A stretch of 64,000 nt of DNA from Candidatus Ozemobacter sibiricus (lineage in GTDB: Bacteria > Muiribacteriota > Ozemobacteria > Ozemobacterales > Ozemobacteraceae): the NCBI GenBank assembly GCA_003327425.1, contig QOQW01000007.1:71901-135900 (forward strand), in the 5' to 3' direction. Position 1 is the stretch's first letter; every line of letters begins with the position of its first letter. Shown in pieces: positions 28,586-47,188 of the stretch. The position numbers were made by a program, and so were the translations under genes. Under the pieces are notes generated by a model that did no database searches, was not told where the DNA came from, and saw only the letters and a program-made list of their open reading frames with translations.

Positions 28586-29464
28586 ATGACCGCGCGCGAG
28601 TGGCTGCAGACCACCGCCGCCGCCTTCCAGCGAGCCGGGCTGGCGGAGGGCGAAGGGGCGGCCGCCGAAGCCGGCCTTCTGCTCGAAGCGGTGCTGGGAG
28701 AGCCTCGCTTGCAGGTGATGGCCGGAGGCGCGCGGCGCACCCTGTCGGAGGCCGAGGAGGCGGCCCTGGGTCGGCTGGCTGCCCGCCGGTTGAGTCGGGA
28801 ACCGCTGCAATTCATTCTGGGGCGATGGGCCTTTCTCGATCTGACCCTCGAGGTCGGTCCGGGTGTGCTGATTCCCCGCCCCGAGACCGAAGACTGGGTC
28901 GACCGATTGCTGGGCAGCCCTCTGGTCGAGCGCTTCGGTGCTGATCCTGCCCTAGTCTTCGCCGATCTCGGCACTGGCACTGGCGCCATCGGATTGACCC
29001 TGGCCCGCCGCTGGCCGCGGTCGCGCGGGATCCTGGTCGATATCTCGGCTGCCGCCCTGGAGTTCACGCGGCGGAATCTGGCCCGCCATCCTGCTGAAGC
29101 CGACCGGCTCGCCATGGTGCGTGGCGATCTCTGCGGCTGCCTGCGGACGGGGGCGTTCGACCTCGTGGTGGGCAATCTGCCCTATATCGATCCCGTCGAC
29201 CTGCCTGGCCTGGAACCGGAAGTGCGGGATCACGAGCCACGGGTGGCCCTCGACGGCGGGCCTGGCGGGGTCGACCTGATCCGTCGGGTGCTGGCCGAGG
29301 TCGGTCGGGTCGTGCGGCCGGGCGGGCTGGTGGCCCTCGAGCATGGGCATGGCCAGCGGGCGGTGCTGCAGCGCCTGCCGGCTCCCGATCTCGCGCTGCG
29401 GGCGGCCTTCGATGATGCCGCCGGGCGTGAACGCTGTCTGGTCTGGGAGCGCCGACCATCATGA
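28586..29464 (+). CDS. prmC: Release factor glutamine methyltransferase PrmC (HemK)
   Basis: SAM-binding DLGTGTGAIG and catalytic VGNLPYI (NPPY-type) motif. Confidence 0.8.
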   Translation: MTAREWLQTTAAAFQRAGLAEGEGAAAEAGLLLEAVLGEPRLQVMAGGARRTLSEAEEAALGRLAARRLSREPLQFILGRWAFLDLTLEVGPGVLIPRPETEDWVDRLLGSPLVERFGADPALVFADLGTGTGAIGLTLARRWPRSRGILVDISAAALEFTRRNLARHPAEADRLAMVRGDLCGCLRTGAFDLVVGNLPYIDPVDLPGLEPEVRDHEPRVALDGGPGGVDLIRRVLAEVGRVVRPGGLVALEHGHGQRAVLQRLPAPDLALRAAFDDAAGRERCLVWERRPS

Positions 29465-30096
29465 GACGTATCACCATTCCCGCGTTGCTGGCCGACCGCC
29501 CCCAGTGGGAGGCCTTCGTTCAGGATCTGCGACAGGGCGGCGTGGCCGCGCTGCCCACCGACACGGTGTATGGCCTGGCCGCGGATGCTACCTCCAGCCA
29601 GGGCGTACAAGCGATCTACGAGATGAAAGGACGGGAGGAAGGCAAGCCGTTGATTCTGTTCCTGGCCGAAACCGATCAACTGGGCGAGCTGGGCATCCGA
29701 CCCGATGCCGTGCAGGCGAAGCTGCTGTCGACCTTCTGGCCGGGGCCGTTGACCGCCGTCTTTCCGACCCCGGCTGAATGGCAGGTGCGGTTCCCATTCC
29801 CCTCGCTTGGTATCAGGGTGCCCGATCATCCCGAGGTACGGACCTTGCTAGCGGCGTATCCCGGCTTTCTGTTGACGACCAGCTGCAACAAATCGGGGCA
29901 GCCGCCCTTGATGGATCCTGATGCCATCGCCGGGGAATTCGCTGGCTCACTGGCCTGGTTGCTGGACGGTGGCCCGCTGGTTCCTTCGCCGCCGTCGACC
30001 GTGCTCGATCTGACCGCTTCCCCGCCCCGCATCCTGCGGGAAGGCTGTTTGACCCGGGCGATGCTGGCCGCCAGCGGCATCTTCGGCAACGCGTAG
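29461..30096 (+). CDS. tsaC: L-threonylcarbamoyladenylate synthase (YrdC/TsaC type)
   Basis: ALPTDTVYGLAAD motif; 211 aa; ATGA overlap with prmC. Confidence 0.8.
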   Translation: MRRITIPALLADRPQWEAFVQDLRQGGVAALPTDTVYGLAADATSSQGVQAIYEMKGREEGKPLILFLAETDQLGELGIRPDAVQAKLLSTFWPGPLTAVFPTPAEWQVRFPFPSLGIRVPDHPEVRTLLAAYPGFLLTTSCNKSGQPPLMDPDAIAGEFAGSLAWLLDGGPLVPSPPSTVLDLTASPPRILREGCLTRAMLAASGIFGNA

Positions 30097-30167
30097 GAGG
30101 GGGCGGGCCGCCCGGCGGTCGAAGGGAAAGCGGCGGAGAAAAGGCGTTCCCTGCCGACAGGACAGGG

Positions 30168-30178
30168 TGTGGTAGAAT
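30168..30178 (+). promoter_or_regulatory. Extended -10 element (TGgTAGAAT) upstream of MCP gene
   Basis: TG-n-TAGAAT at 30170..30178, about 45 nt upstream of MCP ATG with GAGGAA RBS; -35 weak. Confidence 0.3.
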
Positions 30179-30223
30179 GTCGACGCTGCCCACCCGAATG
30201 AGGAACAACCGCCAGCGACCACC

Positions 30224-31606
30224 ATGCCGAAACATCTGACCACTCAAGCCAAGCTGATCGGCTTTTTGATCGTGGCCTTGCTCATCCCCGTTGGCGCGGC
30301 CAACTACATTCTGTACCGGGCGAAAGGGGCGACGGCGCAGGTGCCGGTCGTGCTCGGCGTGCGAGCCCTTCCCACCCAGGCGGAAACCAACCTCGATTTC
30401 GTGGAATACGTCAACTCCATGGGGGATCGGCTGGACAAGCTGGCCAACACCTTGCGCGACCTCGAGGCCTATGCGCGCTTCTTCCTGGTGGGATCGTTGC
30501 TGTTCATTCCGCTGGCCACCGTAGGATTCTGGGCCTTGCTGGAGGCTCTCAACGCCCCGATGCGGGAGGCTCTGAAAAAACTGGCCTATTTCCTGAACGA
30601 GGAACGAGGCGACGAGGACGGCGATGTGCAGACTGCCGCCGCCGAGTTCGAGAAATTCCTCATGACCGCTCGCAATATCCTGTCCGAGACCCGCTCCATC
30701 TCTCAGGAGCTGGTGAAGAAGATCGAGCCGCTGACCACCACCTCGGTCTTCTCCGACGAGAATGTCGGGCAGTTCTTCACCGATGTGCAGGAGATCTCCC
30801 GCAGTTCGAACTACATCGCCAATACCGTCGAAATGACCACGGCCAGCATCCAGGAGGTGTCGACCTCGGCCCAGACCATCGCCGAGCGATCCCAGGCCGC
30901 GGCGAGCGACAGCGCCGGGGCCGCCAAGGTGGCGGCCGAGGGACGCCGGGCCGTCACCGAGACGATCGGCACCATGGAGGCCATCAAAGACGAGGTCATG
31001 GCCCTGGAAGACCTGATCGAAAGTCTCAATTCGGCCAGCAAGCAGATCGGCGAGATCGTCAACACCATCACCGGCATCGCGCATCAGACCAACCTGCTGG
31101 CGCTCAACGCCGCCATCGAAGCTGCCCGCGCCGGAGAACACGGGCAGGGCTTCACCGTGGTCGCCGAAGAGGTGCGCAAGCTGGCCGAGGAGTCCGGAGA
31201 GGCCGCCGAAGACATCGGCAAGAAGATCAAGGGCATGCTCGAGAAGACCGGCAATGCCGTGCAGACCATCAGCAAGGGCACCGCCAAGGTCATCGAAGGG
31301 GTCAATGTGGCCAATGTTGCTGGCACCAACCTGACCCTGATCGTCAACTCGGTCACCAGCGTCAACAAGATGATCCAGGACATCAGCAACGCCAGCCGCG
31401 AGCAGTCGACCAACATCGAATCGCTGCGACAGAGCATCGAGAGCATCTCGGGCGCCACCAAGATCACTTCGGAAGGCACCAAGCGGGTGGCCAACGCGGT
31501 CAATGAGCAATTGAACTACATTCGTCAGTACATCGGCGTGTTGAAGGAGATCCTGACCCTCGTGCAGCTCATGGGCGACATGCTCGACAAATACAACTTC
31601 CGCTGA
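30224..31606 (+). CDS. Methyl-accepting chemotaxis protein
   Basis: N-terminal TM, conserved MCP signalling domain (…[36 protein letters not shown]…). Confidence 0.8.
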
Positions 31607-31801: not shown

Positions 31802-32824
31802 ATGTCCCCTGCATCATCCCTGTTGCCCATGGCGTTCGAAGAGTTCCAGAAGGCCGTGATCGGCCTGGGCCTGGAGAAGTTCCGGGCCCGGCAGGTCTGG
31901 GAATGGCTGTTCGGCAAGCTCGTCTTCGACTTCGCCGCCATGACCGACCTGCCGGTCGCGGCTCGACAGAAGCTGGCCGAGGCTTTCCCCGCCATCCTGC
32001 CCACCGACTACCAGACCTGGTGCGGGGCCGACGGGACGGTCAAGCTGGCCTTGCCGCTGGCCGATGGCGAAACCGTCGAAGCGGTCGGCCTGCCCGACGA
32101 CCAGACCTTGACCTTCTGCCTGTCGAGCCAGGTGGGCTGCCCGGTCGGTTGCGCCTTCTGCCGGACCGGGGCGCGCGGGTTCACGCGCAACCTCACCACC
32201 GAAGAGATCGCTCTCCAACTGATGCTGCTGGTCAAGGTCCTGCGGGCTCGGCCGACCAACATCGTGTTCATGGGCATGGGCGAGCCGTTCCTCAACCGGC
32301 CGGCAGTGTTCGGGGCGATCGATCTGTTCACCGATCCCCGCCAGCTCGGGTTGGCGACCCGGCGCCTCACCATCTCGACGGCCGGGGTGGTCGAGGGCAT
32401 CCAGGAGCTGGCCGAGCGCCCAGGGGAGGTCAACCTCGCCGTCTCCCTGCATTCCGTCGATGATTGGGTCCGCTCCCTGCTCGTGCCCCTCAACCGGCGC
32501 TACCCGCTCGCCCGGTTGCGGGCGGCCCTCGTCGACTACCTCGCCCGCACCAATCGCCGGGTCAGTTTCGAGATGACCCTGCTGAAGGGTGTCAACGACA
32601 GCCTCGCCGACGCCCTCAATCTCGTGCAGTTCTGCGAGGGACTCCTGTGCCACATCAATCTCGTCCGCTTCAATCCCTTCCCAGGGTGTGCCTACAAACC
32701 AGCCCCCGAAGCCGCCGAGAAGGAGTTCCGCAAGGTGCTGAAGAAGGCGGGGCTGCCCGTCACCGTCCGGCGGTCCCGGGGGGCCGACATCCTGGCGGCA
32801 TGCGGACAGCTCGCCGGAAAGTGA
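31802..32824 (+). CDS. rlmN: 23S rRNA (adenine2503-C2)-methyltransferase RlmN (radical SAM)
   Basis: CLSSQVGCPVGCAFCRTG radical-SAM cluster motif and overall RlmN/Cfr collinearity. Confidence 0.9.
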   Translation: MSPASSLLPMAFEEFQKAVIGLGLEKFRARQVWEWLFGKLVFDFAAMTDLPVAARQKLAEAFPAILPTDYQTWCGADGTVKLALPLADGETVEAVGLPDDQTLTFCLSSQVGCPVGCAFCRTGARGFTRNLTTEEIALQLMLLVKVLRARPTNIVFMGMGEPFLNRPAVFGAIDLFTDPRQLGLATRRLTISTAGVVEGIQELAERPGEVNLAVSLHSVDDWVRSLLVPLNRRYPLARLRAALVDYLARTNRRVSFEMTLLKGVNDSLADALNLVQFCEGLLCHINLVRFNPFPGCAYKPAPEAAEKEFRKVLKKAGLPVTVRRSRGADILAACGQLAGK

Positions 32825-32828
32825 AGCC

Positions 32829-34016
32829 ATGGCCAAGAAAGAATCCTGTCTGTTGATCCTGGTCAAGATGCTGATCTTGATCTCGCTGCTGATCGCCGGC
32901 GTCGTGGCCGCCTTTTTCTACCTGCGGGGGCAGCTCAACGAGTATTTCAACCGGGGCGAGACCATCGAAGTGCCTGATTTCAAGGGCAAGCACCTGGTCC
33001 AGGTCTTCAAGGAAAAGCCGGCCGACCTCGTGATCGAGAAAGCCGACGAGAAGTTCGATCCGCGCTATCCCAAGGATTTCGTCATCGCGCAGTATCCCGA
33101 GGCCGGAACGCGGGTCAAGCCCAACAAGAAAGTCCTGCTGACCATTTCCCTGGGCAGCAAGCAGGTCAATGTCCCCGACCTCTTCCAGCGCAACCTGCGC
33201 GAATCGCGGCTGGCGCTGCTGAATGCCCAGCTCCTCGAAGGGAACCTGGCCTACATCCGTTCGGGCAAGGTCGATCGTGATCGGGTCATTACCCAGTCGC
33301 CCCTGCCGGCCATGGGCCAGGCGGTGCAGGGCAAGGTCGATCTGCTGGTCAGCCTGGGGCGCGGCCCGGTCCGGATGCCCCTGCCCAACCTGACGGGCAA
33401 GACCCTCAACGAGGCCCAGACCAGCCTGACCGCCTGGGGCCTCAAGCCCGGCCGGGTCATCACCCGCAAAGATCCTTCCCGGCCCTCGCAAACGGTCATT
33501 TCGACGGTCCCCGCGCCGTTCGAGCCGGTCGGGGAAGGAACGACCGTCGATCTGCTGGTCTCTTCCGGCAACGAACCAGGTACCGCCAAAGCCGGAGACC
33601 TCGAACGCTTCGAGTTCACGGCCGGGGCGGCGGCCGAGGTCACGGCCGCGCCGGCCAAACCGCGCGATGAACCCAAGCCCGCCGCGGCCGCGGCCACCCC
33701 CGCTGCCCCTGCCGCCCCCGCGGCGCCGCAGATCTTCCTCGCCGATGATCCCGCCCCGCCGCAGGTGGTGCCCCCGCCGCCGGTGACGCCGCCCGCGCCC
33801 GGTGCCGAGACCAGTCAGATCTCGTTCGTCATGCCCGACGGCTTCATGCCCAAGGAGGTCAAGTTCTTCCAGGTGTCGCGGGAAGGCCGCACCCAGGTCT
33901 ACACGGGCACCCATAAACCCCTCGACCTGATCAAGGTGACGGTGCCCCGTATCCCGTCCAGCAAGATCCAGATCTACATCAACGATGTTCCCATCGAGGA
34001 ACGTCCGGTGCAATAG
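32829..34016 (+). CDS. Membrane-anchored PASTA-domain protein (three PASTA repeats, Pro/Ala-rich linker, C-terminal domain)
   Basis: N-terminal TM (LILVKMLILISLLIAGVVAAFFY), three PASTA-like units (VPDFKG…, VPDLFQRN…, MPLPNLTGKTLNEAQ…), low-complexity PA-rich segment. Confidence 0.7.
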   Translation: MAKKESCLLILVKMLILISLLIAGVVAAFFYLRGQLNEYFNRGETIEVPDFKGKHLVQVFKEKPADLVIEKADEKFDPRYPKDFVIAQYPEAGTRVKPNKKVLLTISLGSKQVNVPDLFQRNLRESRLALLNAQLLEGNLAYIRSGKVDRDRVITQSPLPAMGQAVQGKVDLLVSLGRGPVRMPLPNLTGKTLNEAQTSLTAWGLKPGRVITRKDPSRPSQTVISTVPAPFEPVGEGTTVDLLVSSGNEPGTAKAGDLERFEFTAGAAAEVTAAPAKPRDEPKPAAAAATPAAPAAPAAPQIFLADDPAPPQVVPPPPVTPPAPGAETSQISFVMPDGFMPKEVKFFQVSREGRTQVYTGTHKPLDLIKVTVPRIPSSKIQIYINDVPIEERPVQ

Positions 34017-34051
34017 ATTCCCCGCACCAGAGACCAGCGGAGGCTGCAGGA

Positions 34052-35338
34052 ATGATTGGCACGATCATCAATGGCAGATATGAGCTGCTCCAGACGCTCT
34101 CGGAAAGCCATCAGTTCGAAGTATTCACCGCCCTCGAGCGCGAGACGGGCGCCACCGTCGTCGTCAAGCTTCTGCGCGAAGAGCTGTGCGACAACCAGGA
34201 GCGGGTCCGGATCTTCTGCGAAGAGGTCAAGGCCTTCGCCGCCCTTTCCCACCCTGGCATCGTCCACATCCTCGATATGGATCAGTTCGGTCGCCGTCCC
34301 TTCGTCGTCACCGAGCTGGTCGAGGGAGTCGACCTGAAAACCTGGATGCAGAGCGGAACTGCTTCCTTCAAAGACGTTGGCCGGGTCGTGCAGGAGCTGG
34401 CCACTGTTCTGCAATACGCTTGCGACCAGAAAGTGACGCGCCGTTCGATCAAGGTCTCCAATGTCTTTCGGCGGCGGGACGGGTCGATCAAGGTGCTCAC
34501 CTTTTCCCACCCTCGTCTCAAGCTGGTCGGCGCCGAGTCGCGCAGCTATGATGAAGCGGCCGGGGTGCAGTCCGACCTGTTCTTCCTGGGCACGACCATG
34601 TTCGAACTGCTGACCGGAGAATCGCCCATCCGCAAGCGAGGGGGCCTGCACGAACTGTGGGAGTCCCGCTTGCGACAGGCTCTGCGGGTGCGGCACGCCC
34701 ACCTGACGCCTGACGATATCGATCGCGTGGTCGATTTCCTCGATCGCACTCTGACCCGGAATGTGCAGCGGCGCTTCGAGTCGCATGCCGCGTTCCTGAT
34801 GGGGTTGTCCGACCTCTTGCACGCCTCGGAAGGCGCTCTGCGCAAGGAACGGGGGCCGGCCGCCCGCGTCGCCCTGGCCACCGCCGCCGAGGTCGTCGAT
34901 GCCATCCATGGTCGCCTGCCCGGTCCGTCGGTCGGTTCGGTCGGCTCTGCCCGTTCTGCCGCGGCGGACGTGGCGCCCCTGGCCATCGGTCGCCAGGCTC
35001 GTCAGGCGGTCAGCCCCGCCCGCCTCGGGTCGGAGGCTGCCGCCTCGCTCGGAGCGGGCGCGGCCATGCTCGCTGTCTCCGCCGACTCCGGGGGAGCCGC
35101 CCTGGCCATCTCGGCCGAGGCCGAACCTCTGCCCGCCGAGCCGTCGCCTGACCTGGAGGAAGACGTGCCCCCCGCTTCTTCCTCGCCGCGCCTGACCGTG
35201 GTGTCCCGCTCGGGGCGGACGGCAGCGACCAGCCAGATCTGGCGCAAAGCCGAGGAACAGACCCGTTGGTGGCGCAATCCTCTGTTCCTGATGGGCGGGC
35301 TGCTGCTGCTCATGATCATCCTGATCCTGTTCTGGTGA
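34052..35338 (+). CDS. Ser/Thr protein kinase-like protein with degenerate catalytic motifs (probable pseudokinase), C-terminal TM anchor
   Basis: Kinase fold recognisable (VVVKLL lysine, …KVSNVF…, …TFS…, APE-like GTTMFELLTGESP). The Gly-rich loop is absent. HRD is replaced by RRS and DFG by TFS. C-terminal TM LFLMGGLLLLMIILILFW. Confidence 0.65.
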   Translation: MIGTIINGRYELLQTLSESHQFEVFTALERETGATVVVKLLREELCDNQERVRIFCEEVKAFAALSHPGIVHILDMDQFGRRPFVVTELVEGVDLKTWMQSGTASFKDVGRVVQELATVLQYACDQKVTRRSIKVSNVFRRRDGSIKVLTFSHPRLKLVGAESRSYDEAAGVQSDLFFLGTTMFELLTGESPIRKRGGLHELWESRLRQALRVRHAHLTPDDIDRVVDFLDRTLTRNVQRRFESHAAFLMGLSDLLHASEGALRKERGPAARVALATAAEVVDAIHGRLPGPSVGSVGSARSAAADVAPLAIGRQARQAVSPARLGSEAAASLGAGAAMLAVSADSGGAALAISAEAEPLPAEPSPDLEEDVPPASSSPRLTVVSRSGRTAATSQIWRKAEEQTRWWRNPLFLMGGLLLLMIILILFW

Positions 35339-35343
35339 GGGGT

Positions 35344-36051
35344 ATGAACCGGCCGCTGCTCGCCCCTTCCATCCTCTCCGCCGATTTCGCGCGTCTCGGC
35401 GAGGAACTCGCCGTCGTCACCGCCAGCGGTGCCGACTGGGTCCACCTCGATGTCATGGACGGCCATTTCGTGCCGAACCTGACGTTCGGGCCGCCGGTCA
35501 TCGCCCACCTCAGACGTCATTCCCAGTTGCCGTTCGACGTCCACCTGATGATCGAACAGCCGCAGCAGTGGCTGAAGATCTATCGCGAGGCCGGCGCCGA
35601 TCGGCTGACCATCCACCTCGAGGCGTGCCGGCATGTGCAACGGCATCTGGTCGAGATCCGGCAGTTGGGCGCGGCCGCCGGACTGTGCCTCAATCCGCAG
35701 ACCTCCCTGGCTGGGCTCGAGTACCTCCTGCCCGATTGCGACCAGGTGCTGATCATGACCGTCAACCCCGGCTTCGGCGGACAGTCGCTGCTCGAACCGG
35801 TGGTCGGCAAGATCGCCGATCTGCGTCGGCTCATCGACCGGATGGGTCTGCCGACCCTCATCGAGGTCGATGGCGGCATCGATGCCACCAATGCGCAAAG
35901 GATCCTGGCCGCTGGTGCCGATGTATTGGTTATGGGCTCGGCCTTCTTCCGGACGGAAGAGAAGCCAGCCCTGGTTGCCCGGATCCATGGGATGACCACG
36001 CGCGCACGACGAGGCAAACGACATCATGGAAGGTCCACGCCATCTGCATGA
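35344..36051 (+). CDS. rpe: Ribulose-phosphate 3-epimerase
   Basis: HLDVMDGHFVPN, DVHLM, MTVNPGFGGQ, VDGGI motifs. Confidence 0.85.
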   Translation: MNRPLLAPSILSADFARLGEELAVVTASGADWVHLDVMDGHFVPNLTFGPPVIAHLRRHSQLPFDVHLMIEQPQQWLKIYREAGADRLTIHLEACRHVQRHLVEIRQLGAAAGLCLNPQTSLAGLEYLLPDCDQVLIMTVNPGFGGQSLLEPVVGKIADLRRLIDRMGLPTLIEVDGGIDATNAQRILAAGADVLVMGSAFFRTEEKPALVARIHGMTTRARRGKRHHGRSTPSA

Positions 36052-37372
36052 GCTGCTGTCACAGCTCGAGGAGCAAAGCCAGGAAACCCCGAACGATCTG
36101 AATCTCTTGCGCAAGCTGGGCCGCCTGTACCTGCGCAACGGCTCGGTGGCGGCCGCGGTGCGCGTCTTCCAACGCCTCCTGGCCCAGGCGCCCGACGATC
36201 TGGCCGCGTCGGTCGACCTGGCCCTCAGCCAAGCTCGGCTCGGCCAGATCGAAGAAGCGCGGTTCCTGCTCGAACGTGCCCTGGAAGTGGCGCCTCGATC
36301 GGCCACCGTGCTGGTCGCCATGTCGCAGGTCTGCGAGATGGCCAAAAACACCGAAGGGCAGGTCACCTTCCTCATGCGCGCGGCCAATGCCGCTCCTCAG
36401 CGTCCCGAGATCCGGCTCGCGCTGGGAGAGATCCTACGGCGGCATGGCGATTTCGCGGGGGCGATCCGGCAGTATGAGGCCGTCCTGGCCGTCCACCCCC
36501 ATCTCGAGGCGGCCCGCTTCGCGCTCGCGGCGCTCCTGATCCGGCAGAACCGGCTCAACGAGGCCATGGACCACCTGCGGGCCATCATCCGGCTGAACCC
36601 CAGCGCCCACGATGCCCATTATAACCTCGGTCACTGTCTCTTCCGTCAGAAGAAATGGGAACTGGCGACCGCCTCGTTCATGGCGGCCATGAAAGGGATG
36701 AAAGACCATCCCCAGCTGCATTACCAGCTCGCCATCTGCCAGTTCCACCTCAAAGACTGGGACCGGGCCATCGTCCACATGGAGCGGTATGCCGCTCTGC
36801 TGCCCGGGTCGTTCGAGGCCCAGCTCGCCTTGGGCGACCTCTACCAGCAGGCGGGAGAGCCCGACCTCGCGCGCGAGGTGTTCGCCGGGCTGGCCGATGC
36901 CTTCCCGCAGCGACCCGAGTCCTTCATCCGCCTGGCGAGCATCTGCCGCGACCTGCAGCGGTTCGACGAGGCGGAGCAGGCGCTGCGCCGCCTCTTCCAC
37001 CATCATCCTGGTCATATCGAGGGGCATCGTCTGCAGGCCGATCTGCATTTCGCCAGGGGCCAGTGGAAAGCCGCCCTCGACGAGTACCGCAACACCTTGT
37101 TGATGAACGAGAACTATCTGCCGGGGCGTCGAGGCGTGGCGGCGGTCTTCCGGCAGACCGGTCAGACCGCTGAAGAATTCGCCGCCCTGCAGAAGGTGGC
37201 CGCCCTGGCCCCCGATGATGTCGACGTGCTGCTGCGCCTGGGCGAACTCGAGAAGATCCTGGGCATGCCCAGCTGCCTGGACCGGTTCCGCAAGATCACC
37301 CAGTTGGCGCCTGATTCCTTGCAGGCCAAGGAGGCGAGCTACTACCTCCGCCACCTCGCCAAGGCTGGCTGA
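36026..37372 (+). CDS. TPR-repeat protein
   Basis: Multiple TPR units (…AHYNLGHCLFRQKKWELA…, …LQLAICQFHLKDWDRAI…). Confidence 0.6.
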   Translation: MEGPRHLHELLSQLEEQSQETPNDLNLLRKLGRLYLRNGSVAAAVRVFQRLLAQAPDDLAASVDLALSQARLGQIEEARFLLERALEVAPRSATVLVAMSQVCEMAKNTEGQVTFLMRAANAAPQRPEIRLALGEILRRHGDFAGAIRQYEAVLAVHPHLEAARFALAALLIRQNRLNEAMDHLRAIIRLNPSAHDAHYNLGHCLFRQKKWELATASFMAAMKGMKDHPQLHYQLAICQFHLKDWDRAIVHMERYAALLPGSFEAQLALGDLYQQAGEPDLAREVFAGLADAFPQRPESFIRLASICRDLQRFDEAEQALRRLFHHHPGHIEGHRLQADLHFARGQWKAALDEYRNTLLMNENYLPGRRGVAAVFRQTGQTAEEFAALQKVAALAPDDVDVLLRLGELEKILGMPSCLDRFRKITQLAPDSLQAKEASYYLRHLAKAG

Positions 37373-37498
37373 TGCCTGCCGGCCGGTCGCTCGCGCTGGT
37401 CGCGAGGCGGTGGCGAGGGTCGGGACTTTTCTTCCTGTGTCTGTGAACCGAGATCGTTCGGTGACGGCTCGGCGCCAAGGAAACTCGCCGATCTGCCG

Positions 37499-38788
37499 AT
37501 GAGTCTGGCCATGGATCGCCTGCTGGCTTCGCTGCTTCTGCTCGATCTCGTGGCCTGGCTGCTCTGGGAACTGGTCGGTTGGGGGCTTGATGGAGCGCGG
37601 GGCCGGACGGAGGACGGGGAACCGCGGTCCCCGCGTCTGGCCCCGACCCGGCCGGCCGCCGTGCTTTATCCGGCCCCTCCCCGGGCGTCACCGCCGCCGG
37701 GAGCGGAGGCCGAACCGGCGCTGGCCGACTGCGATCGCCGCTTCCTGGCCCGGGTCGGGCGAGAACGCCGCTTGACCGCGGCCGAAAAGGGCAAGCTGGT
37801 GGAATTGGCCAGGCACGCCGCACCCGAGCTGCAGTGGGAAGCCGTTTCGATTCTCGTCGACGATCCCGATCAGCACCCGTTCATCTGGCGATGGCTCGAG
37901 GAGCAGGATCGCCGTCTGCTCGAACTCGTCCGGCGGTTGATGGAGACGGGGGAGATCACCCTTTCCCCGGAGCTGGTCGCCATGTTGGAAGGGTTGAGCG
38001 CAAGCCCGGATGCTTCGCCCTCGACTTTCCCTTCCCAGGCTCCTGTCGCGCTTCCCCCTGCCGATTCAACGCCGGTCGGCCCCAGCGAGGTCATTCCCGA
38101 ATACGCCGGGGCTCACGAACTGTTCCTCGCCCTGCAGCATTTTCAGGATCTGCCAGCGGATATTCGCACGGAACAGGCGACGGCGCTCATCCAGAACGGT
38201 CTGCTGGCCTCCGACCCCTATGTGCGAGGCGCGGCCGTGGCGGCCATGGGGCGCTGCTCGATTCAAGATGCCTCGCTGCATCTCCGTCGCCTGCTTGGGG
38301 ACGAATCGTCGTATGTGCGAGGGTGCGCGGTCGATGCTTTGTGCGAACTGGAAAAAGCCGGGGCGCTTTCGGCGTTGGAGCAGGTCTTGCAAGACGAAGA
38401 CACCCTGGAGGTCCTGGAAATCGTTCTGGTCAACCTCTCTCAAATGAACGTGCCGGAAGCCCTCCAGACGCTCGATCGTCACCTCGATCATCTGCCTGAA
38501 CCCATCCTGCCCATGGCGCGCCGGGTGCGACAAAGCCTGGCCAGAAAGGTGGCGCCCTCCCGGCCGTGCTCTTCACGACCAGAGGCCGAACCGGATGGCC
38601 AGGGCCAGCCCGGCCGCCAGGTGCAGGAGCAACGCCCCTTTGAGGGCTTTTCTGGCGAGGGAGGTGGGGCCATGCGGGAAGATGCCGGCCAGGCCCAGCA
38701 GCACGAGGGGGCCGGCCCATCCCCAGGCCGGAATGGCCAGCGCGGCGGCCGTTCCGACGCCGAACCAGGGGAAGAACCGCCCCGGTGA
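37499..38788 (+). CDS. Membrane-anchored HEAT-repeat protein
   Basis: N-terminal TM; HEAT/PBS-lyase repeats (DPYVRGAAVAAMGRC…, SSYVRGCAVDALCEL…). The low-complexity C-terminal ~70 aa overlap pilD on the opposite strand, so the 3' end is uncertain. Confidence 0.5.
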   Translation: MSLAMDRLLASLLLLDLVAWLLWELVGWGLDGARGRTEDGEPRSPRLAPTRPAAVLYPAPPRASPPPGAEAEPALADCDRRFLARVGRERRLTAAEKGKLVELARHAAPELQWEAVSILVDDPDQHPFIWRWLEEQDRRLLELVRRLMETGEITLSPELVAMLEGLSASPDASPSTFPSQAPVALPPADSTPVGPSEVIPEYAGAHELFLALQHFQDLPADIRTEQATALIQNGLLASDPYVRGAAVAAMGRCSIQDASLHLRRLLGDESSYVRGCAVDALCELEKAGALSALEQVLQDEDTLEVLEIVLVNLSQMNVPEALQTLDRHLDHLPEPILPMARRVRQSLARKVAPSRPCSSRPEAEPDGQGQPGRQVQEQRPFEGFSGEGGGAMREDAGQAQQHEGAGPSPGRNGQRGGRSDAEPGEEPPR

Positions 38789-39343
38789 GGGCCCGCGCGT
38801 GGCGAGCCATCCGGCGATGGTGCCCAGCACCGGAGCCAGAGCCCAGACGGCCAGCCAGGGGCCACCTGCCACCCAGGTCAGAACCGCGAAAGCCAGCAAC
38901 GGCCAGAGAAAAGGGCCGGGCGCGGCCACTTCTTCCCGGATCAACAGCATGGTCTGGATCAGCCAGATGATGGCCCAGGCGGCGGTCGGCACCAGCTGGC
39001 GGCTTGCCCCCCAGAACCAGAACGAGGAGGCAAGAATGAGGGCGGCGGCCAGCTCGACCAAGGGATACTGGATGGAGATGGGCGCCTGACAATATCGGCA
39101 GCGGCCTCGCAGCATCACCCATCCGAAGATCGGGACGAGATCGAGGGCGGACAGACGGTGGTGGCAATGGGGGCAGGCCGACGGCGGGAAGACCACCGAT
39201 CGTCCTTCCGCCATACGCAGGATGACGACGTTGGTAAAGCTGCCCAACAGGCTGCCGAAGATGCCGAACAACATCGCCCCGGCGGCCAGGGGCAGCCCCG
39301 GGGAACCGCCCAGAGGATCAGGAATGTCGGACCAGAACCCCAT
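38573..39343 (-). CDS. pilD: Prepilin peptidase / N-methyltransferase PilD (A24 family)
   Basis: Tetra-Cys zinc motif CPHCHH…CRYC, conserved A24 helices; start at internal ATG (MGFWSD) of the long ORF 38573..40054. Confidence 0.85.
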   Translation of the reverse strand: MGFWSDIPDPLGGSPGLPLAAGAMLFGIFGSLLGSFTNVVILRMAEGRSVVFPPSACPHCHHRLSALDLVPIFGWVMLRGRCRYCQAPISIQYPLVELAAALILASSFWFWGASRQLVPTAAWAIIWLIQTMLLIREEVAAPGPFLWPLLAFAVLTWVAGGPWLAVWALAPVLGTIAGWLATRGPSPGRFFPWFGVGTAAALAIPAWGWAGPLVLLGLAGIFPHGPTSLARKALKGALLLHLAAGLALAIRFGLWS

Positions 39344-39351
39344 GATCGACC

Positions 39352-41217
39352 TCACGCTGAGGGGTAGGATGGAGATGGTGACGGTAGGATATCCGAGCCC
39401 GCTTTCCAGTACAACCGAATCACGATGCCGACAGCCAGCAGAGCGAGGACCATGCCCACGGTACGGCGCGGAGAATGAACGCGGAAGAGGCGAAAGGTGC
39501 CGCCGCCTCCGGGGAGTTCGGCTCGGAGCTGTCCGCAGGGCCCGTACGGCGACAGGGAAATGCGCTGGCCCGTTTCCGCATGTTCGAGGGCCCACCCCTG
39601 ATCGTAGTGCGTCCAGCCGATCAGGATTCCTCCCGAGGCGGGAAGGTCTGCGTGAAATATGGCCTCGTGACGGCTGTTGTGCCGGAGTTCGAGGCGGGCT
39701 TCCCCGCTGGCCAGCACCTGGAGCTGATGATAAGGTCCTGCTCGGGCCGAGATCGGTCTGGGCAGACGACAATCGGCCAGGTGACAGGTGGCCGGCACGT
39801 ATTCGCAGGGATAATGGAAATCGCCAACCAGAAAGCGTTCCATCAAGTCCGTCGACAAGGGAATCGCCGTGCCTTGGACCCACAGAGCCGTAAACACCCA
39901 CATGGCGAAGCTGCTCCAGCCCGTCAAGGTGATGAGCCGGTTCAGCTGGCCTGAGCCGGCACCTGTCGCCGGCACCCACCACCCAGTCATCGCCGGGATC
40001 AGCAGAATGGTGCCCGGCCACACCCATCGCCATGGATATTGCAACGAGGCCCAACCTGGCATCCAGTGCCAGAGAGGCAGACTGATTCGGGAACTCAGCC
40101 CCAGGCCAACCATCCCGCAGATCATGGCCAGCAGGACCGGATGATCGCAGCCGAGCCGGCCGCTGGCCAAGGCGAGCAACGCCAGGCCCACGGCCAGGGC
40201 GACCGCCACGCGCATGGCCAGCCGGAAATTGGGTCGCTCGAGTCCCAGAAAAGAGGGAGGAGGCGTGTCGAGCTGTGGCGGCAGTGCGGCTGGCCCAAGA
40301 GGGTCATCCAGGAAGCTCTGGTGCGCCCAGGGTTGCTGCTTCTCGAGATGCGAGGAGAAATGCAATGAATCCAGCTCAGGGAGGGCCTCCAGAAGATAGG
40401 GGGCGGTCAACGCGGCCGCCAGCAGCGGCATCAGGAGCACGTTCCGCCAGGCAAGCCGCCCTGTCTTTCCCCAGAGCCAGGCCAGGAGCACCCACCCGGC
40501 CGCGAGGTAGCCCATCATCAGGGCGGCGGGCAGGTGCGTCCAGGCGATCAGGCTGCCCACCAAAGCCCCCTGCGCCAGAGCGGCCTGGTCACCTTCACGG
40601 CCCAGGCGGGTCAACGCCTCGAGCACCCAGGGAAAGAGCGCCATGGCACAGATGTTCTGGAACAGGAACACCCGGAACAAATGAATACTGACCACGGGAT
40701 TGGCCAGGAACAGCACCACCGCCAGCGGGGCGCGGTCTGCCAGCCCCAGGCAGGCCATCCATCGCACCAATCCCCATGTACCTGCGAGAAGGAAGACGAT
40801 CACCGTGGCCCGCAAGGCCGTGGCCGCCGACCAGCCGAGATACTGGAACCCGCTGGCCACGAGGTAGGCGCCTGGCGCATAGAAGCGGAAAGCGGCGGTT
40901 CCTCTTCCCTCGTAGATGGCGGCATCCCAATCGGGCCGGGTTCCCTCTTCCGCCAGAGTCAGGGCGAATTCTTGACTGAAGTACAGGTGGAAAGGAACAT
41001 CCCACGCGTCGGCCAGGGGACTCAGCCACAGGAACCATCCCTGTCCCAGGATCAGGCCAGCCAGGGTCCACATCGCCAGCGGGAAGAACCCAGAAAGGGC
41101 CCATTGTCCAGGCCTCTCGGCGAGTGAGCCGGCGTCTGGAGAGGCCTGTTGCGGGAGCCCGCCGAACAGGGTGGGGGGGGAAGGAGACATTGAGCCGGGA
41201 TTCCTTGGCAAGAGCAA
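39352..41217 (-). CDS. Large polytopic membrane protein, possible GT-C-type glycosyltransferase (pilin-modification candidate)
   Basis: 621 aa, >10 predicted TM helices with an extracytoplasmic-loop acidic motif (…RPDWDAAIYEGRG…); lies between pilA and pilD like TfpW/TfpO-type pilin glycosyltransferases. Confidence 0.5.
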   Translation of the reverse strand: MLLPRNPGSMSPSPPTLFGGLPQQASPDAGSLAERPGQWALSGFFPLAMWTLAGLILGQGWFLWLSPLADAWDVPFHLYFSQEFALTLAEEGTRPDWDAAIYEGRGTAAFRFYAPGAYLVASGFQYLGWSAATALRATVIVFLLAGTWGLVRWMACLGLADRAPLAVVLFLANPVVSIHLFRVFLFQNICAMALFPWVLEALTRLGREGDQAALAQGALVGSLIAWTHLPAALMMGYLAAGWVLLAWLWGKTGRLAWRNVLLMPLLAAALTAPYLLEALPELDSLHFSSHLEKQQPWAHQSFLDDPLGPAALPPQLDTPPPSFLGLERPNFRLAMRVAVALAVGLALLALASGRLGCDHPVLLAMICGMVGLGLSSRISLPLWHWMPGWASLQYPWRWVWPGTILLIPAMTGWWVPATGAGSGQLNRLITLTGWSSFAMWVFTALWVQGTAIPLSTDLMERFLVGDFHYPCEYVPATCHLADCRLPRPISARAGPYHQLQVLASGEARLELRHNSRHEAIFHADLPASGGILIGWTHYDQGWALEHAETGQRISLSPYGPCGQLRAELPGGGGTFRLFRVHSPRRTVGMVLALLAVGIVIRLYWKAGSDILPSPSPSYPSA

Positions 41218-41274
41218 CCAGGGGAGAAAATGAAAAAGGGGCGGAAAACCGCCCCTCAGACCAGCGATCGATGG

Positions 41275-41613
41275 TTATTCCACGCCACCGTGCCAAGCAC
41301 AGGTAACGCGGCCCGAACCGGTCAGGTCGCCGTCAGCGGCGTACGTGCAGCCGGTCTCGGGGTAGGAGATCTCGCTCTTGAGATACTGGCCCGACTTCAG
41401 GGTGGACAGGTCAACGGTGGACATCATCGAGGAGTGATCCATGTTGTACATCTCGATGGCACCCAGGATGACGCGCATGTTGGCGTAGCAGGCCTTCTCA
41501 CGAGCTTGCTCACGGGCTTTCCGGAAGTTGGGGATGGCGATGGCAGCCAGAATACCGATAATGGCGATAACGATCATCAGTTCGATCAGGGTGAACCCAC
41601 GGCGCTTGTTCAT
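41275..41613 (-). CDS. pilA: Type IV major pilin PilA (short pilin, 6-aa leader)
   Basis: MNKRRG|[22 protein letters not shown] with Phe1/Glu5; C-terminal Cys pair ([20 protein letters not shown]) forming the D-region loop; strong RBS AAGGAAAGGAGGTG. Confidence 0.8.
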
Positions 41614-41649
41614 TCGTTTTCACCTCCTTTCCTTTCAAGCTCCATTTTC

Positions 41650-41678
41650 ATCGTAAGAAAAAACCGACCACGTGTCAA
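41650..41678 (-). promoter_or_regulatory. Near-consensus sigma70-type promoter of pilA (TTGACA-17-TACGAT)
   Basis: Minus-strand reading TTGACAcgtggtcggttttttctTACGAT located 37-65 nt upstream of the pilA ATG; no sigma54 GG-N10-GC element seen. Confidence 0.55.
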
Positions 41679-41719
41679 GAATGTCCGGTACATTCTTCGG
41701 GTGACAAGGATTCGGCTGG

Positions 41720-42781
41720 TCAGCCCCCCTTCAACATGCGTTCCAGCTCCTTCGGATGGAGGGTATGCATGATCGCTTCTTCGAGGGTGATGTCGCCGCG
41801 CAGATACAGGTCTTTGAGGGATTGCTCGAAGGTCATCATGCCCTCGTTCTGGCTGGTCTGCATGATGGTATAGAGGCCGGAGATCTTCTGTTCGCGAATG
41901 CAGTTGGCGACGGCAGGGTTGCCGATCAGGATTTCCGTGGCCACCACGCGCCCCTTGCCGCTGGCCATGGGGAGCAGTTGCTGGGCGACGACCGCCCGCA
42001 GGACGAACGAGAGCTGTGAGCGGATCTGCGGCTGCTGGTGGGGCGGGAAGATATCGATGATGCGGTTGATGGTCTGGGCGGCATCGGTGGTATGCAGGGT
42101 GCCGAAGACCAGGTGGCCGGTTTCCGCCATGGTCAAGGCCGCGCTGACCGTTTCGAAGTCGCGCATCTCGCCCACCAGGATGACATCGGGGTCCTGGCGC
42201 AGGATGTGCCGCAGCGCTTCGGCGAACGAGGTGGTGTCGATGTGGAGTTCTCGTTGGTTGACGATCGATTTCTTATGGTAATGCAGATATTCGATCGGGT
42301 CTTCGACGGTGATGATGTGGCAGCGTTGTTCCTCGTTGATGATGTTGATCAATGAGGCCAGGGAGGTCGACTTGCCTGACCCCGTGGGGCCGGTGAACAA
42401 AACCAAGCCCTTGTTCCATTTGGTGAAATCACGCAATTTTGGCGGAAGCCGAAGATCTTCCAGGGATGGGATCTTAGTCGGGATGACCCGGAAGGCGGCA
42501 CCGATGCAGCCACGTTGCTTGTACACATTGACGCGGAAGCGGCCGAAGCCATGGACCGAATAGGAGATGTCCAGTTCGAGGTTCTCCTCGAACTCCTTCT
42601 GTTGCTCGGCCGTCAGCATGTTGTAGACCAGCGATCGGGTATCCATGGGCGTGAGGACATCAAGGTCGGTAGGGATCAATTCCCCGTCGACCCGGATGAC
42701 CGGAGGGCTGCCCACGGTGATGTGCAGGTCCGAGGCCTCGTTCTCGATGACGATGTTCAGCAGGTCGTTGAGGACGAACAT
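41720..42781 (-). CDS. pilT: Twitching-motility ATPase PilT
   Basis: Collinear with PilT (N-terminus MFVLNDLL…ASDLHITVG), Walker A GPTGSGKST, Walker B ILVGEMRD, His box GHLVFGTLHT. Confidence 0.9.
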   Translation of the reverse strand: MFVLNDLLNIVIENEASDLHITVGSPPVIRVDGELIPTDLDVLTPMDTRSLVYNMLTAEQQKEFEENLELDISYSVHGFGRFRVNVYKQRGCIGAAFRVIPTKIPSLEDLRLPPKLRDFTKWNKGLVLFTGPTGSGKSTSLASLINIINEEQRCHIITVEDPIEYLHYHKKSIVNQRELHIDTTSFAEALRHILRQDPDVILVGEMRDFETVSAALTMAETGHLVFGTLHTTDAAQTINRIIDIFPPHQQPQIRSQLSFVLRAVVAQQLLPMASGKGRVVATEILIGNPAVANCIREQKISGLYTIMQTSQNEGMMTFEQSLKDLYLRGDITLEEAIMHTLHPKELERMLKGG

Positions 42782-42836
42782 TTCCCAGCTCCTTGCGGCG
42801 TGATCGCCGTGTTTCTGTCGCTCTTCGGGTACTGTA

Positions 42837-44579
42837 TCAATGCTCACCCATGGTGACGCGGACGACTTCTTCCAGGGAGGTGATGCCTGTCAGTGCCTTG
42901 CGGAGGGCCGATTCGCGCAGGGACAGCATCCCTTCTTCGATGGCCTGCCGGCGGATGTCATCGGTGGAGCCGCCGTTGAGGATGATTTCGCGCAGGCGTT
43001 CCGACATCACCATGACCTCGTACACCCCGATGCGGCCCTTGGTGCCCGAGTTGTTGCAGGTCTCGCAGCCTTTGCCCTTGTAGAAGAGCATGTTCTTCTC
43101 GTTGATGTGCGGCAATTCGAGCCGGCGCAGCAGTTCGGGCGTGATGCCGAACTGGGCGATCTGCTCGGCGCGCGGTTTGATCTCGAATTTGCAGTCCTTG
43201 CAGATCTTGCGCACCAAGCGCTGCGCCTGCACCAGCAGGACCGACGTGGTGACCATGAACGGTTCGATCCCCATGTTGACGATACGGCCGATCGTGCCGG
43301 GGGCGTCGTTGGTGTGCAGAGTGGACAGCACCAGGTGACCGGTCATCGACGCCTTGATGGCGATTTCGGCGGTTTCGAAATCGCGGATCTCGCCGACCAT
43401 GATGATGTTCGGGTCCTGGCGGAGGAAGGCGCGCAGCGCCGCCGCGAAGGTCAGGCCGATTTCGGGCTTGCAATGGACCTGATTGATGCCCTGGAGCATG
43501 TATTCGACCGGATCTTCCGCCGTCATGCAGTTGACTTCGATGCGGTTGAGACTGGTCAAGGCCGAATACAGCGTGGTGGTCTTGCCTGATCCGGTGGGGC
43601 CGGTGACCAGGATGATCCCGTAGGGGGAGGAAATGCCGTTCTTGAAGCGTTTCAGGGTTTCCGGCTCGAATCCCAGATCTTCCAGGTTGACGCGGAGGGC
43701 GCTCTGGTCCAGGATGCGCATGACGATCTTCTCGCCCCAGATGACCGGCAGGACGCTGACACGCAGGTCGATCATACGGTTGGCGACCTTGATTTTGATG
43801 CGGCCGTCTTGCGGCAGGCGTTTCTCGGCGATGTTCAGGGACGACATGATCTTGATGCGGGAGGTGATGGCCGCCGTGGCCTTCTTGGGCGGGGTCATGG
43901 CGGTGAACAACATGCCGTCCTGGCGATAGCGAATGCGCAGTTCTTTCTCGAAAGGTTCGATGTGGATGTCGGACACCCCGTTCTGGACTGCCTGGGAAAT
44001 GACCAGGTTGCAGAGGCGGATGATCGGGGCGTCGTTTTCGCCCAGTTCGCCGAGCTGATCGAGGTCATCCGGTCCTGCTTCTTCCTTGCCGATGTCGTCG
44101 AGTTCGCCCATCAGTTTGTCTTGCTGGGCGACCGCGCCGTAGGCGTCTTGCAACGCTTTGTTGATGTCGGTCTGCGTGGCCACGACCGGTTTGACCATCA
44201 GTCCGGTCAGCAACTGGATGTCATCGATGGCGATGATGTTCAAGGGATCGACCATGGCCACCGTCAGCTTGTTGCCGACCTTATTGATCGGGATCAGCAT
44301 GTGCCGCTTGGCCAGATGCTCGGGGACCAGTTTGGCGATGACCGGGTCGATCAGGTAGTTGGACAGGTCGATGAAGGGGATCTTGAGCTGCTTGGACAGG
44401 ATCTGGACGATGTCGTGCTCGGTGACGAGGTGCATCTCGACGAGGACGGCACCCAGGCGTTTGCCGCTCTTCTTCTGCAGAGCGAGCGCCTGCTGCAGCT
44501 GCTCTTCATTGATGAGACCTTCGGCGATGAGGGCATCGCCCAGACGCATCTTTTTGGCAGCCTGTTGAATATCCGTCAT
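42837..44579 (-). CDS. pilB: Type IV pilus assembly ATPase PilB (GspE family)
   Basis: 580 aa, N-terminal GspII_E domain, Walker A GPTGSGKT, tetracysteine CKDC…CETC motif. Confidence 0.9.
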   Translation of the reverse strand: MTDIQQAAKKMRLGDALIAEGLINEEQLQQALALQKKSGKRLGAVLVEMHLVTEHDIVQILSKQLKIPFIDLSNYLIDPVIAKLVPEHLAKRHMLIPINKVGNKLTVAMVDPLNIIAIDDIQLLTGLMVKPVVATQTDINKALQDAYGAVAQQDKLMGELDDIGKEEAGPDDLDQLGELGENDAPIIRLCNLVISQAVQNGVSDIHIEPFEKELRIRYRQDGMLFTAMTPPKKATAAITSRIKIMSSLNIAEKRLPQDGRIKIKVANRMIDLRVSVLPVIWGEKIVMRILDQSALRVNLEDLGFEPETLKRFKNGISSPYGIILVTGPTGSGKTTTLYSALTSLNRIEVNCMTAEDPVEYMLQGINQVHCKPEIGLTFAAALRAFLRQDPNIIMVGEIRDFETAEIAIKASMTGHLVLSTLHTNDAPGTIGRIVNMGIEPFMVTTSVLLVQAQRLVRKICKDCKFEIKPRAEQIAQFGITPELLRRLELPHINEKNMLFYKGKGCETCNNSGTKGRIGVYEVMVMSERLREIILNGGSTDDIRRQAIEEGMLSLRESALRKALTGITSLEEVVRVTMGEH

Positions 44580-47032: not shown

Positions 47033-47188
47033 GGGTATCCCCCTTCGACGATCGATACGCTTGGTCATCTCCAGTTGTCGGCGGCCGTCGCCGCTTTGTT
47101 GAGTACTTTTCTTCATCTGCTTCGCAGGCTCCTTCACGGGTGATGCTCGGAGCGGACCTGATGGGCGTCCCGCGGAGTGGTCGGAGCC

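Follow-up and report, generated by a model that had tools for sequence, protein, structure and literature searches.

The 64,000-nucleotide stretch of Candidatus Ozemobacter sibiricus DNA analysed here (contig QOQW01000007.1, positions 71,901 to 135,900; hereafter the window, in whose numbering all coordinates are given, on the plus strand unless stated) carries a gene for a tail-anchored, PrkC-derived pseudokinase (34052..35338) downstream of a gene for a PrkC-type sensor that has no kinase domain (32829..34016). Judged from sequence, the pseudokinase is one half of a split PrkC and not a stand-alone orphan, because the gene next to it on the upstream side encodes the sensor half and the two together take up the chromosomal prkC slot. 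We consider it fairly probable that the two proteins constitute a split PASTA receptor with a non-catalytic, possibly nucleotide-binding cytoplasmic module. We are highly confident of the homology, the motif state, the conservation and the gene pairing, moderately so of a functional coupling of the two proteins, and have low confidence in the specific output mechanism.

The pseudokinase gene starts with ATG and encodes 428 amino acids (aa); its public record (RCK80272.1 / UniRef100_A0A367ZSB7, Candidatus Ozemobacter) is annotated as 'Serine/threonine protein kinase PrkC'. The protein scores 67.4 bits against Pfam PF00069 Pkinase (cut-off 31.7, E 1.7e-18), with the match limited to the N-lobe through the catalytic loop, and aligns to positions 1-151 of the NCBIfam PknB_PASTA_kin model. 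Residues 1-265 (34052..34846) are modelled by AlphaFold2 (AF2) as a bilobal kinase fold at a predicted local distance difference test (pLDDT) of about 85-95, and the top Foldseek matches of this model are PknB 3ORT (1.7e-16), PknA, Stk1 4EQM and PknI, with the PknB L33D and D76A interface mutants also among the PDB matches. The kinase-like domain is followed by a helix that is marked by both conservation and AF2 (ATAAEVVDAIHGR, aa 276-288, 34877..34915), in which A278, V282, D283 and A284 are invariant across an alignment of 33 database homologues (A1). A linker of ~110 residues rich in Ala, Pro and Ser (about aa 289-402, 34916..35239) is disordered, with pLDDT below 50, and is poorly aligned and variable in length and sequence among homologues; the orthologue at locus L003 (L003 7201-8871) has a ~130-aa Ser/Gly-rich repetitive insertion within it. 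The chain closes with a conserved juxtamembrane segment (W397, W406 and N409-P410, in the pattern W...W-x-R-N-P) and a transmembrane tail anchor (aa 410-428) ending in ...LILFW, together spanning 35240..35335 as delimited by conservation and AF2. This C-terminus, NPLFLMGGLLLLMIILILFW, is a confident AF2 helix over residues 410-427 of 428 with a hydrophobic last 19 residues and, since the helix reaches the end of the chain, the pseudokinase lacks an ectodomain. The single C-terminal helix, the Ala-rich linker and the missing ectodomain had all been proposed in an earlier reading of the DNA letters alone, referred to here as the original prediction. Two long open reading frames (ORFs) that run antisense to the gene on the minus strand (33974-34909 and 35002-36387) were dismissed as high-GC artefacts, as the plus frame has coding GC1/GC2/GC3 values of 0.69/0.48/0.80, Pfam support and purifying selection.

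Kinase motifs were placed in register by a phmmer alignment to Mycobacterium tuberculosis PknA and PknB and by a MAFFT alignment with five active kinases. Among solved kinases the best phmmer match is PknA 4X3F (E 5e-16), followed by StkP, PknB and Stk1; posterior probability in the PknA/PknB alignment is high through the catalytic loop, and three independent alignments yield the same register. The proposal to verify the domain by its Pkinase score and by alignment to PknB-type catalytic domains was thus borne out, with a score of 67.4 bits and one consistent register. Motif conservation was assessed in 29 Riflebacteria orthologues, taken independently from species-representative genomes, in addition to the 33 database homologues. 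The GxGGMxxV loop of active kinases is replaced by L16-S-E-S-H-Q-F-E-V, and the former Gly-rich loop LSESHQF (aa 16-22, 34097..34117) lacks Gly in all 29 orthologues, as anticipated from the window protein, and in five distant relatives introduced below, while E18 and S19 are nearly invariant. In the catalytic loop (RRSIKVSN, aa 130-137, 34439..34462) H-R-D-x-K-x-x-N has become R130-R131-S132-I133-K134-V135-S136-N137; the replacement of Asp by Ser at S132 agrees with the original prediction, whereas the string given there, TRRSIKVSN, is one residue too long, the mapping starting at R130. The HRD-Asp position is occupied by Thr (17), Ser (11) or Asn (1) among the 29 orthologues, whose loop reads xR[ST]xKxSN with R131, S136 and N137 invariant and K134 a Lys in 28 of 29 (Arg in L030). 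The DFG motif has become T150-F151-S152 within a family motif TFSHPRL (aa 150-156, 34499..34519), and both the phmmer and the MAFFT alignment place T150 at the lost Asp, in line with the Asp-to-Thr change reported at first. Here the orthologues have Ser (26), Thr (2) or Gly (1); F151 is invariant and P154, R155 and L156 are each found in 28 of the 29. No Asp occurs in residues 126-142 or 144-166, and therefore a small shift of register cannot restore either catalytic Asp, so that the realignment named in advance as a threat to this reading leaves it intact. The segment from DFG to APE is ~11 residues shorter than in PknB and this shortened activation loop has no conserved phospho-acceptor; the 'APE-like' segment that had been noted is weak, as Y166-D-E does align to APE and only the Glu is the majority residue in the family.

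Other hallmarks of the fold are kept. The beta3 Lys, noted earlier in the string VVVKLL, is invariant (K39, 34166..34168, VAVK becoming VVVK), as are its salt-bridge partner, the alphaC Glu E58 (34223-34225), and, in the 29 orthologues, the alphaF Asp D175 and D75. Equivalents of PknB R10 and D76, which serve the back-to-back dimer, are conserved as K/R9 (28 of 29) and D75 (29 of 29). A family-specific C-lobe motif, RKRGGLHELW (aa 194-203, 34631..34660), was recognised by conservation in the 33-homologue alignment, where R196, G197, G198, E201 and W203 are invariant, and its location near the alphaG region makes it a candidate interaction surface. According to the field's sequence definition, a pseudokinase has lost one or more of the VAIK-Lys, HRD-Asp and DFG-Asp (O'Boyle et al.; bioRxiv 10.1101/2025.01.12.632604). 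Two of these three are replaced in every member of the present family; of the features expected in a competent Hanks kinase, the VAIK Lys/alphaC Glu pair is present and the Gly-loop, HRD Asp and DFG Asp are absent. Canonical phosphotransfer is consequently very unlikely on motif evidence, which upholds the original prediction of a membrane-anchored pseudokinase with inactivity as a reading of the motifs. K39, E58, K134, N137, the DFG Phe and the alphaF Asp suggest that an ordered, active-like kinase fold is probably kept, and the protein may bind nucleotide without catalysis.

The pseudokinase is a constrained, functional protein rather than a decaying gene, because its degenerate state is conserved family-wide under purifying selection. 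The lost motifs are retained in their altered form in 29/29 genome orthologues, 33 database homologues and five distant relatives. With the whole gene considered, the ratio of nonsynonymous to synonymous substitution rates (dN/dS) is 0.05-0.29; the kinase-like domain alone has 0.09-0.16 and the linker 0.33-0.79. Purifying selection was found on the PASTA gene as well as on the pseudokinase gene. The exact 428-aa protein is encoded in three independent assemblies (JGI 3300038964, NCBI GCA_020725785.1 and Logan SRR12784215), which excludes the sequencing error considered beforehand as a possible source of the motif losses. Close homologues number 34 among 5.8 billion proteins, those with names belonging to Riflebacteria/Ozemobacteraceae, after which the E-value drops from 6e-70 to 5e-18.

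The upstream partner (32829..34016, 395 aa) is identified as a PrkC-type sensor by Pfam (PASTA, 82.7 bits), NCBIfam, AF2 and Foldseek. Its layout comprises a 14-aa cytoplasmic N-terminus, a transmembrane helix, three PASTA repeats (aa 46-246, 32964..33566; Pfam, AF2 and Foldseek), a Pro/Ala linker and an immunoglobulin (Ig)-like all-beta C-terminal domain (aa 328-393, 33810..34007), the last delimited by a pLDDT of 91-96, conservation and the alignment to 3PY9. Consistent with this, the AF2 model (mean pLDDT 83) shows a long N-terminal helix that includes the transmembrane segment, the PASTA repeats, a disordered linker and a compact six-stranded beta domain. The Ig-like domain goes unrecognised by Pfam and is the best conserved region of the protein, with ~20 invariant residues. 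The best Foldseek match is 3PY9, the whole Staphylococcus aureus PrkC ectodomain consisting of three PASTA repeats and an Ig-like domain (E 1.2e-17, 363 alignment columns); the three-PASTA-only structure 3M9G aligns over 208 columns, and filamin-type Ig domains are also among the matches. Evidence that the two genes are complementary parts of one ancestral architecture comes from NCBIfam model NF033483, of which the PASTA gene covers positions 333-563 (108.3 bits) and the pseudokinase positions 1-151 (105.3 bits), both below the curated equivalog cut-off of 450. Similarly, when full-length actinobacterial PknB is used as a tblastn query, its kinase half matches the pseudokinase and its PASTA half the upstream gene, and no third place is matched in these loci. 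Among the 120 listed homologues of the PASTA protein (of 160 passing the threshold), all are PASTA-only proteins of 295-448 aa and none is fused to a kinase. The first 14 residues of the sensor, MAKKESCLLILVKM (32829-32870), are nearly invariant in Riflebacteria, with a Cys and a Lys among them where the chain meets the membrane, and are conserved more strongly than the adjoining transmembrane helix; this N-terminus is the sole cytoplasmic part through which the sensor could contact the pseudokinase. Public records call both genes (32829-34016 and 34052-35338) 'Serine/threonine protein kinase PrkC, regulator of stationary phase', and P0094, identical to the PASTA protein of the window, likewise bears the name PrkC. 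By motif criteria neither of the two genes annotated as PrkC is a kinase.

The pair lies in a compact cluster in the order rlmN, PASTA gene, pseudokinase, rpe and a tetratricopeptide repeat (TPR) gene, with gaps of 4, 35 and 5 nucleotides followed by an overlap of rpe and the TPR gene. The radical-SAM rRNA/tRNA methyltransferase gene rlmN (31802..32824) ends 4 nucleotides before the start of the PASTA gene, and the ribulose-phosphate 3-epimerase gene rpe (35344..36051) starts 5 nucleotides past the pseudokinase stop; a terminator scan returned no plus-strand terminator-like site inside the rlmN-to-rpe cluster. The order rlmN-PASTA-pseudokinase-rpe recurs in 30/30 Riflebacteria genome loci, where an overlap of 8-20 nucleotides between rlmN and the PASTA gene is frequent and the gap between the PASTA and pseudokinase genes is mostly 17-50 nucleotides. 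In Bacillus subtilis, rsmB (yloM) and rlmN (yloN) presumably lie upstream of prpC. Firmicutes have a conserved prpC-prkC-cpgA operon with rpe and thiN as neighbours (PMC6449344). By analogy with this arrangement, the PASTA/pseudokinase pair sits in the prkC slot between rlmN and rpe, with cpgA and the PP2C-type phosphatase gene prpC absent at the locus. A search of the genome for an active partner kinase and a Ser/Thr phosphatase had been suggested at the outset; none was found in the window, where Pfam identified no other Pkinase, PP2C or FHA domain among 38 proteins, nor by tblastn for PP2C, FHA or an active kinase in 667 kb of related loci (38 loci, roughly +/-10 kb each). Two loci tried as canonical context were set aside: the Coprococcus locus L031, which has an active kinase, contains no rlmN or rpe within +/-10 kb, and L032 proved to be an actinobacterial fhaA-fhaB-PP2C-PBP-pknB arrangement.

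An exhaustive hidden Markov model (HMM) search of 1.84 billion representatives revealed that the family forms an island of about 15 representatives at >=306 bits. Among the next matches, just five are short proteins, of 321-376 aa (P0243, P0316, P0330, P0344 and P0352). These five distant relatives, two of which are named (Candidatus Muiribacteriota and Candidatus Wallbacteria), share 24-32% identity with the window protein over the kinase-like domain and have the same signature: no Gly-loop, a kept Lys, an HRD motif of the form x-R-[S/T/N/H], a DFG region reading [S/G/N/K]-F-[N/T/A]-x-P-R and a tail anchor at the C-terminus. All three phyla retain K39 and the acidic alphaC residue, and the K134 and N137 positions vary, with E and D-N in P0316 and R and S-D in P0352. 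A PASTA-only gene lies directly upstream, or one small ORF away, in 5/5 distant relatives, and rpe is downstream in the three loci with enough flanking sequence. The locus with the intervening ORF, L039, reads rsmB-rlmN-PASTA-(134 aa)-pseudokinase-ispH-rpe, the extra ORF (7566-7970) having no Pfam match. In L038 and L040 the flanking genes differ, yet the PASTA/pseudokinase pair stays together. The two-gene module is old and occurs in no fewer than three candidate phyla. Of these, Riflebacteria and Wallbacteria have been described as diderm Terrabacteria (10.1101/2021.05.31.446380), in agreement with the MlaE/MlaD homologues of the window, and the PASTA repeats would therefore be periplasmic. 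A literature search of incomplete coverage found no prior description of PASTA proteins with these phyla or in Ozemobacter.

We posit a receptor in which gene 1 (32829-34016) would supply a transmembrane helix and the ectodomain and gene 2 (34052-35338) the kinase fold, the juxtamembrane linker and a transmembrane helix of its own. The PASTA/Ig sensor would read peptidoglycan precursors or fragments in the periplasm and could join the pseudokinase through the two membrane helices and/or its 14-residue cytoplasmic N-terminus. Binding may then alter the oligomeric or conformational state of the pseudokinase, in which the PknB-like dimer residues R/K9 and D75 are conserved, and the pseudokinase could in turn engage cytoplasmic partners through family-specific surfaces, either as a scaffold or as an allosteric switch. 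Candidate surfaces are E18/S19 and HPRL at the former active site, the C-lobe motif (RKRGGxNELW across the family), the A-x-x-V-V-D-A helix, the juxtamembrane W...W-x-R-N-P segment and the transmembrane helix ending in L-I-L-F-W. The module might have arisen by tandem duplication of prkC followed by loss of the kinase domain from copy 1 and of the ectodomain from copy 2. The reversed gene order, with the sensor first, and the presence of a transmembrane helix in both genes are incompatible with a simple frameshift or fission, and fit duplication with reciprocal loss. We infer the physical interaction, ligand, dimerisation, output partners and duplication/reciprocal-loss origin from these patterns. 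A more specific version, in which the PASTA/Ig sensor and a tail-anchored, nucleotide-binding domain (K39, E58, K134 and N137) signal by conformational or oligomeric switching alone, with no transfer of phosphate, is a tentative proposal that we would not presently expect to be correct in full.

Several observations weigh against the split-receptor reading or limit it. The residue corresponding to PknB L33 is Thr (T32) and is conserved as such, which makes the back-to-back interface only partly PknB-like, and the HRD-His position, part of the regulatory spine, is variable among the 29 orthologues. Four residues that contact ATP or Mg (K39, E58, K134 and N137) are kept, which is unusual for a pure scaffold and leaves room for a nucleotide-dependent function or atypical chemistry. 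The co-location of the PASTA and pseudokinase genes could partly be inherited synteny, and it is possible that an active partner kinase or phosphatase is encoded elsewhere in the genome, beyond the scanned neighbourhoods. The notion that the pseudokinase is an artefact or a decaying gene, whether through sequencing or assembly error, as a frameshifted or split prkC pseudogene, or as a misaligned active kinase, draws on the resemblance of the two genes together to one prkC and on their shared PrkC annotation. We consider it refuted by the identical protein in three independent assemblies, an arrangement conserved in 35 loci, a whole-gene dN/dS of 0.05-0.29, and the agreement of three independent alignments on a register with no Asp nearby; moreover, the PASTA-then-kinase order is the opposite of that in prkC, and both genes have a start and a transmembrane helix of their own, so that a frameshift could not have produced the arrangement.

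The retained ATP/Mg-contacting residues are also the starting point for the idea that the protein is an enzyme with a rebuilt active site, either an atypical kinase, for example with E18/S19 as metal or phosphate ligands alongside K39, K134 and N137, or a catalyst of another nucleotide-dependent reaction. The invariance of K39, E58 and N137 in Riflebacteria (K134 in 28/29), the persistence of K39 and the alphaC acidic residue in all three phyla, the near-invariance of E18 and S19 at the former Gly-loop and the non-random occupation of both lost Asp positions by hydroxyl residues (Ser/Thr in 28/29 at each) would all suit such an enzyme, and the kinase-fold 'pseudokinases' SelO (AMPylation) and SidJ (glutamylation) did prove to be enzymes (PMC12599244). 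However, neither the catalytic-base nor the DFG position has a conserved acidic residue in place or close by, the phosphate-positioning Gly-rich loop is lost, the K134 and N137 positions vary in P0316 and P0352, which would not be expected of an essential catalytic apparatus, and a cognate PP2C phosphatase is absent at the locus, unlike in prpC-prkC; we therefore give this idea only a slim chance. Somewhat less remote, although still unlikely, is that the pseudokinase acts independently of the PASTA protein and serves another, active Hanks kinase as substrate, decoy or docking platform, the adjacency of the genes being inherited synteny. A membrane-linked pseudokinase of peptidoglycan control that works through its phosphorylation by another kinase is already known from MviN/ActPs3 (PMC12599244), the long disordered linker contains Ser/Thr residues that could hold phospho-sites, and the kinase scan covered locus neighbourhoods rather than whole genomes. 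Against this, the linker is the least conserved part of the protein and has no conserved Ser/Thr, no FHA protein or kinase occurs in any neighbourhood examined, and the pair remains adjacent and tightly spaced across three phyla at 24-32% identity, even with other flanking genes (L038 and L040). The split PASTA receptor remains our preferred reading.

The wider neighbourhood contains further genes. Upstream of rlmN are a Sua5/YrdC-family gene and a methyl-accepting chemotaxis protein (MCP) gene (29461-31606), and the order sua5-MCP-rlmN is found in most Riflebacteria loci. Downstream, the TPR protein of 448 aa starts 26 nucleotides inside the end of rpe and is followed by a HEAT-repeat protein (36026-38788); the TPR gene is syntenic in nearly all Riflebacteria loci, and its product could be a partner of the PASTA/pseudokinase pair. 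Homologues of MlaE and MlaD (18748-21682) and a FadL/TodX-like outer-membrane protein (46046-47137) indicate a diderm envelope. A type IV pilus-like cluster on the minus strand (38573-44579) encodes two T2SSE ATPases, of which one contains an MshEN domain, together with a pilin that bears an N-methylation motif and a prepilin peptidase recognised by its A24 N-terminal domain. Two giant minus-strand ORFs (47934-57743, 3269 aa, and 58675-63945, 1756 aa) have only weak Pfam matches, to the bacterial Ig-like domains Big_5, Big_13 and FlgD_ig, and probably encode huge surface or adhesin proteins; beside each, a small ORF (47189-47887 and 57908-58678) begins with a lipoprotein-like sequence. A gingipain-type Peptidase_C25 with a propeptide domain is encoded at 5267-7552 on the minus strand.

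PASTA kinases (PrkC, StkP, PknB, Stk1 and PrkA) are central to Gram-positive cell-wall synthesis, division and beta-lactam tolerance, and the relative shares of phosphotransfer and scaffolding in their function are still under study. In these diderm relatives of Firmicutes the catalytic residues and the phosphatase at the locus are gone and the sensor is separate, yet both halves remain adjacent and constrained, which makes the pair a clean system for asking what role the PASTA-kinase fold has without catalysis. The motif pattern, with Lys, Glu, Lys and Asn kept and both Asp and the Gly-loop lost, falls outside the seven-family catalogue of bacterial pseudokinases discussed below, and the public annotation of both genes as 'PrkC' is corrected. 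Should the tentative switching-alone proposal hold, the pair would represent a bacterial receptor-pseudokinase system and would add an eighth family to the pseudokinases of the published atlas, and PASTA-kinase signalling would have a phosphorylation-independent output able to stand alone.

Among known systems, the PrkC/Stk1/StkP/PknB PASTA kinases (NF033483; KAPD) provide both the best sequence family and the best structures for the kinase-like domain. As in PrkC, there are three PASTA repeats and an Ig-like domain, here reproduced by the adjacent gene, a chromosomal position beside rlmN and rpe, and a juxtamembrane linker, long and disordered, that leads into one transmembrane helix. PrkC is a single polypeptide; here two genes encode the sensor and the kinase-like half, in an order opposite to that in PrkC, and both products have a transmembrane helix. 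The Gly-loop and the Asp residues of HRD and DFG are missing, the activation loop is shorter, and neither prpC (PP2C) nor cpgA is found at the locus. The hosts also differ: KAPD is described as specific to Gram-positive bacteria, and the present family belongs to diderm candidate phyla.

In the bacterial kinase atlas (bioRxiv 10.1101/2025.01.12.632604) and a review (PMC12599244), seven bacterial pseudokinase families are described (ActPs1-3, GLW, CP1, DYD and DLHK), with actinobacterial, proteobacterial or cyanobacterial hosts and with the VAIK Lys lost in all or part of the members (bioRxiv 10.1101/2025.01.12.632604). The present family fits none of the seven as they are presented there, the comparison with DYD resting on its description, which mentions a DYD motif, divergent ATP/metal-binding motifs and absence of the Lys in 60% of members. 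GLW, DLHK, ActPs1 and ActPs2 lack the VAIK Lys in all members, and in GLW a GLW motif replaces HRD, whereas K39 is invariant here; CP1 is cytosolic, with no transmembrane helix, and is fused to a COG3899 ATPase domain, in contrast to a tail-anchored protein with no extra domain. A close parallel is MviN/ActPs3: the pseudokinase domain of M. tuberculosis MviN is phosphorylated by PknB and recruits FhaA (PMC12599244). The resemblance extends to a membrane-associated Hanks-fold pseudokinase tied to the peptidoglycan pathway, a shortened activation loop, a transmembrane helix C-terminal to the domain in many ActPs3 members and a conserved back-to-back dimer Asp (D793 in MviN, D75 here). All ActPs3 proteins, however, lack the VAIK Lys and have an ATP pocket occluded by aromatic residues, whereas Lys, Glu, Lys and Asn are kept here; ActPs3 is actinobacterial, with a deletion of ~40 residues in the activation loop of at least half of its members, as compared with ~11 residues in other phyla here, and MviN (MurJ) has its pseudokinase fused to a flippase and is not paired with a PASTA gene.

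The lowest root-mean-square deviation (rmsd) among structural neighbours is that of M. tuberculosis PknI (5XKA and 5M06; rmsd about 3.7 A, TM-score about 0.77). PknI, a membrane-anchored kinase of inactive, pseudokinase-like conformation that we take to span the membrane once and to have a degenerate active site, is in these respects like the pseudokinase; it differs in having only about 20% identity, another lineage and genomic context, and no PASTA partner. The eukaryotic nucleotide-binding pseudokinases ILK, MLKL, STRADalpha and HER3 keep the beta3 Lys/alphaC acidic pair, have lost the HRD and/or DFG Asp, and serve as switches or scaffolds. They provide a functional analogy only and have no specific relationship to the present family, which is bacterial and combines a tail anchor with an extracytoplasmic sensor encoded by a separate gene.

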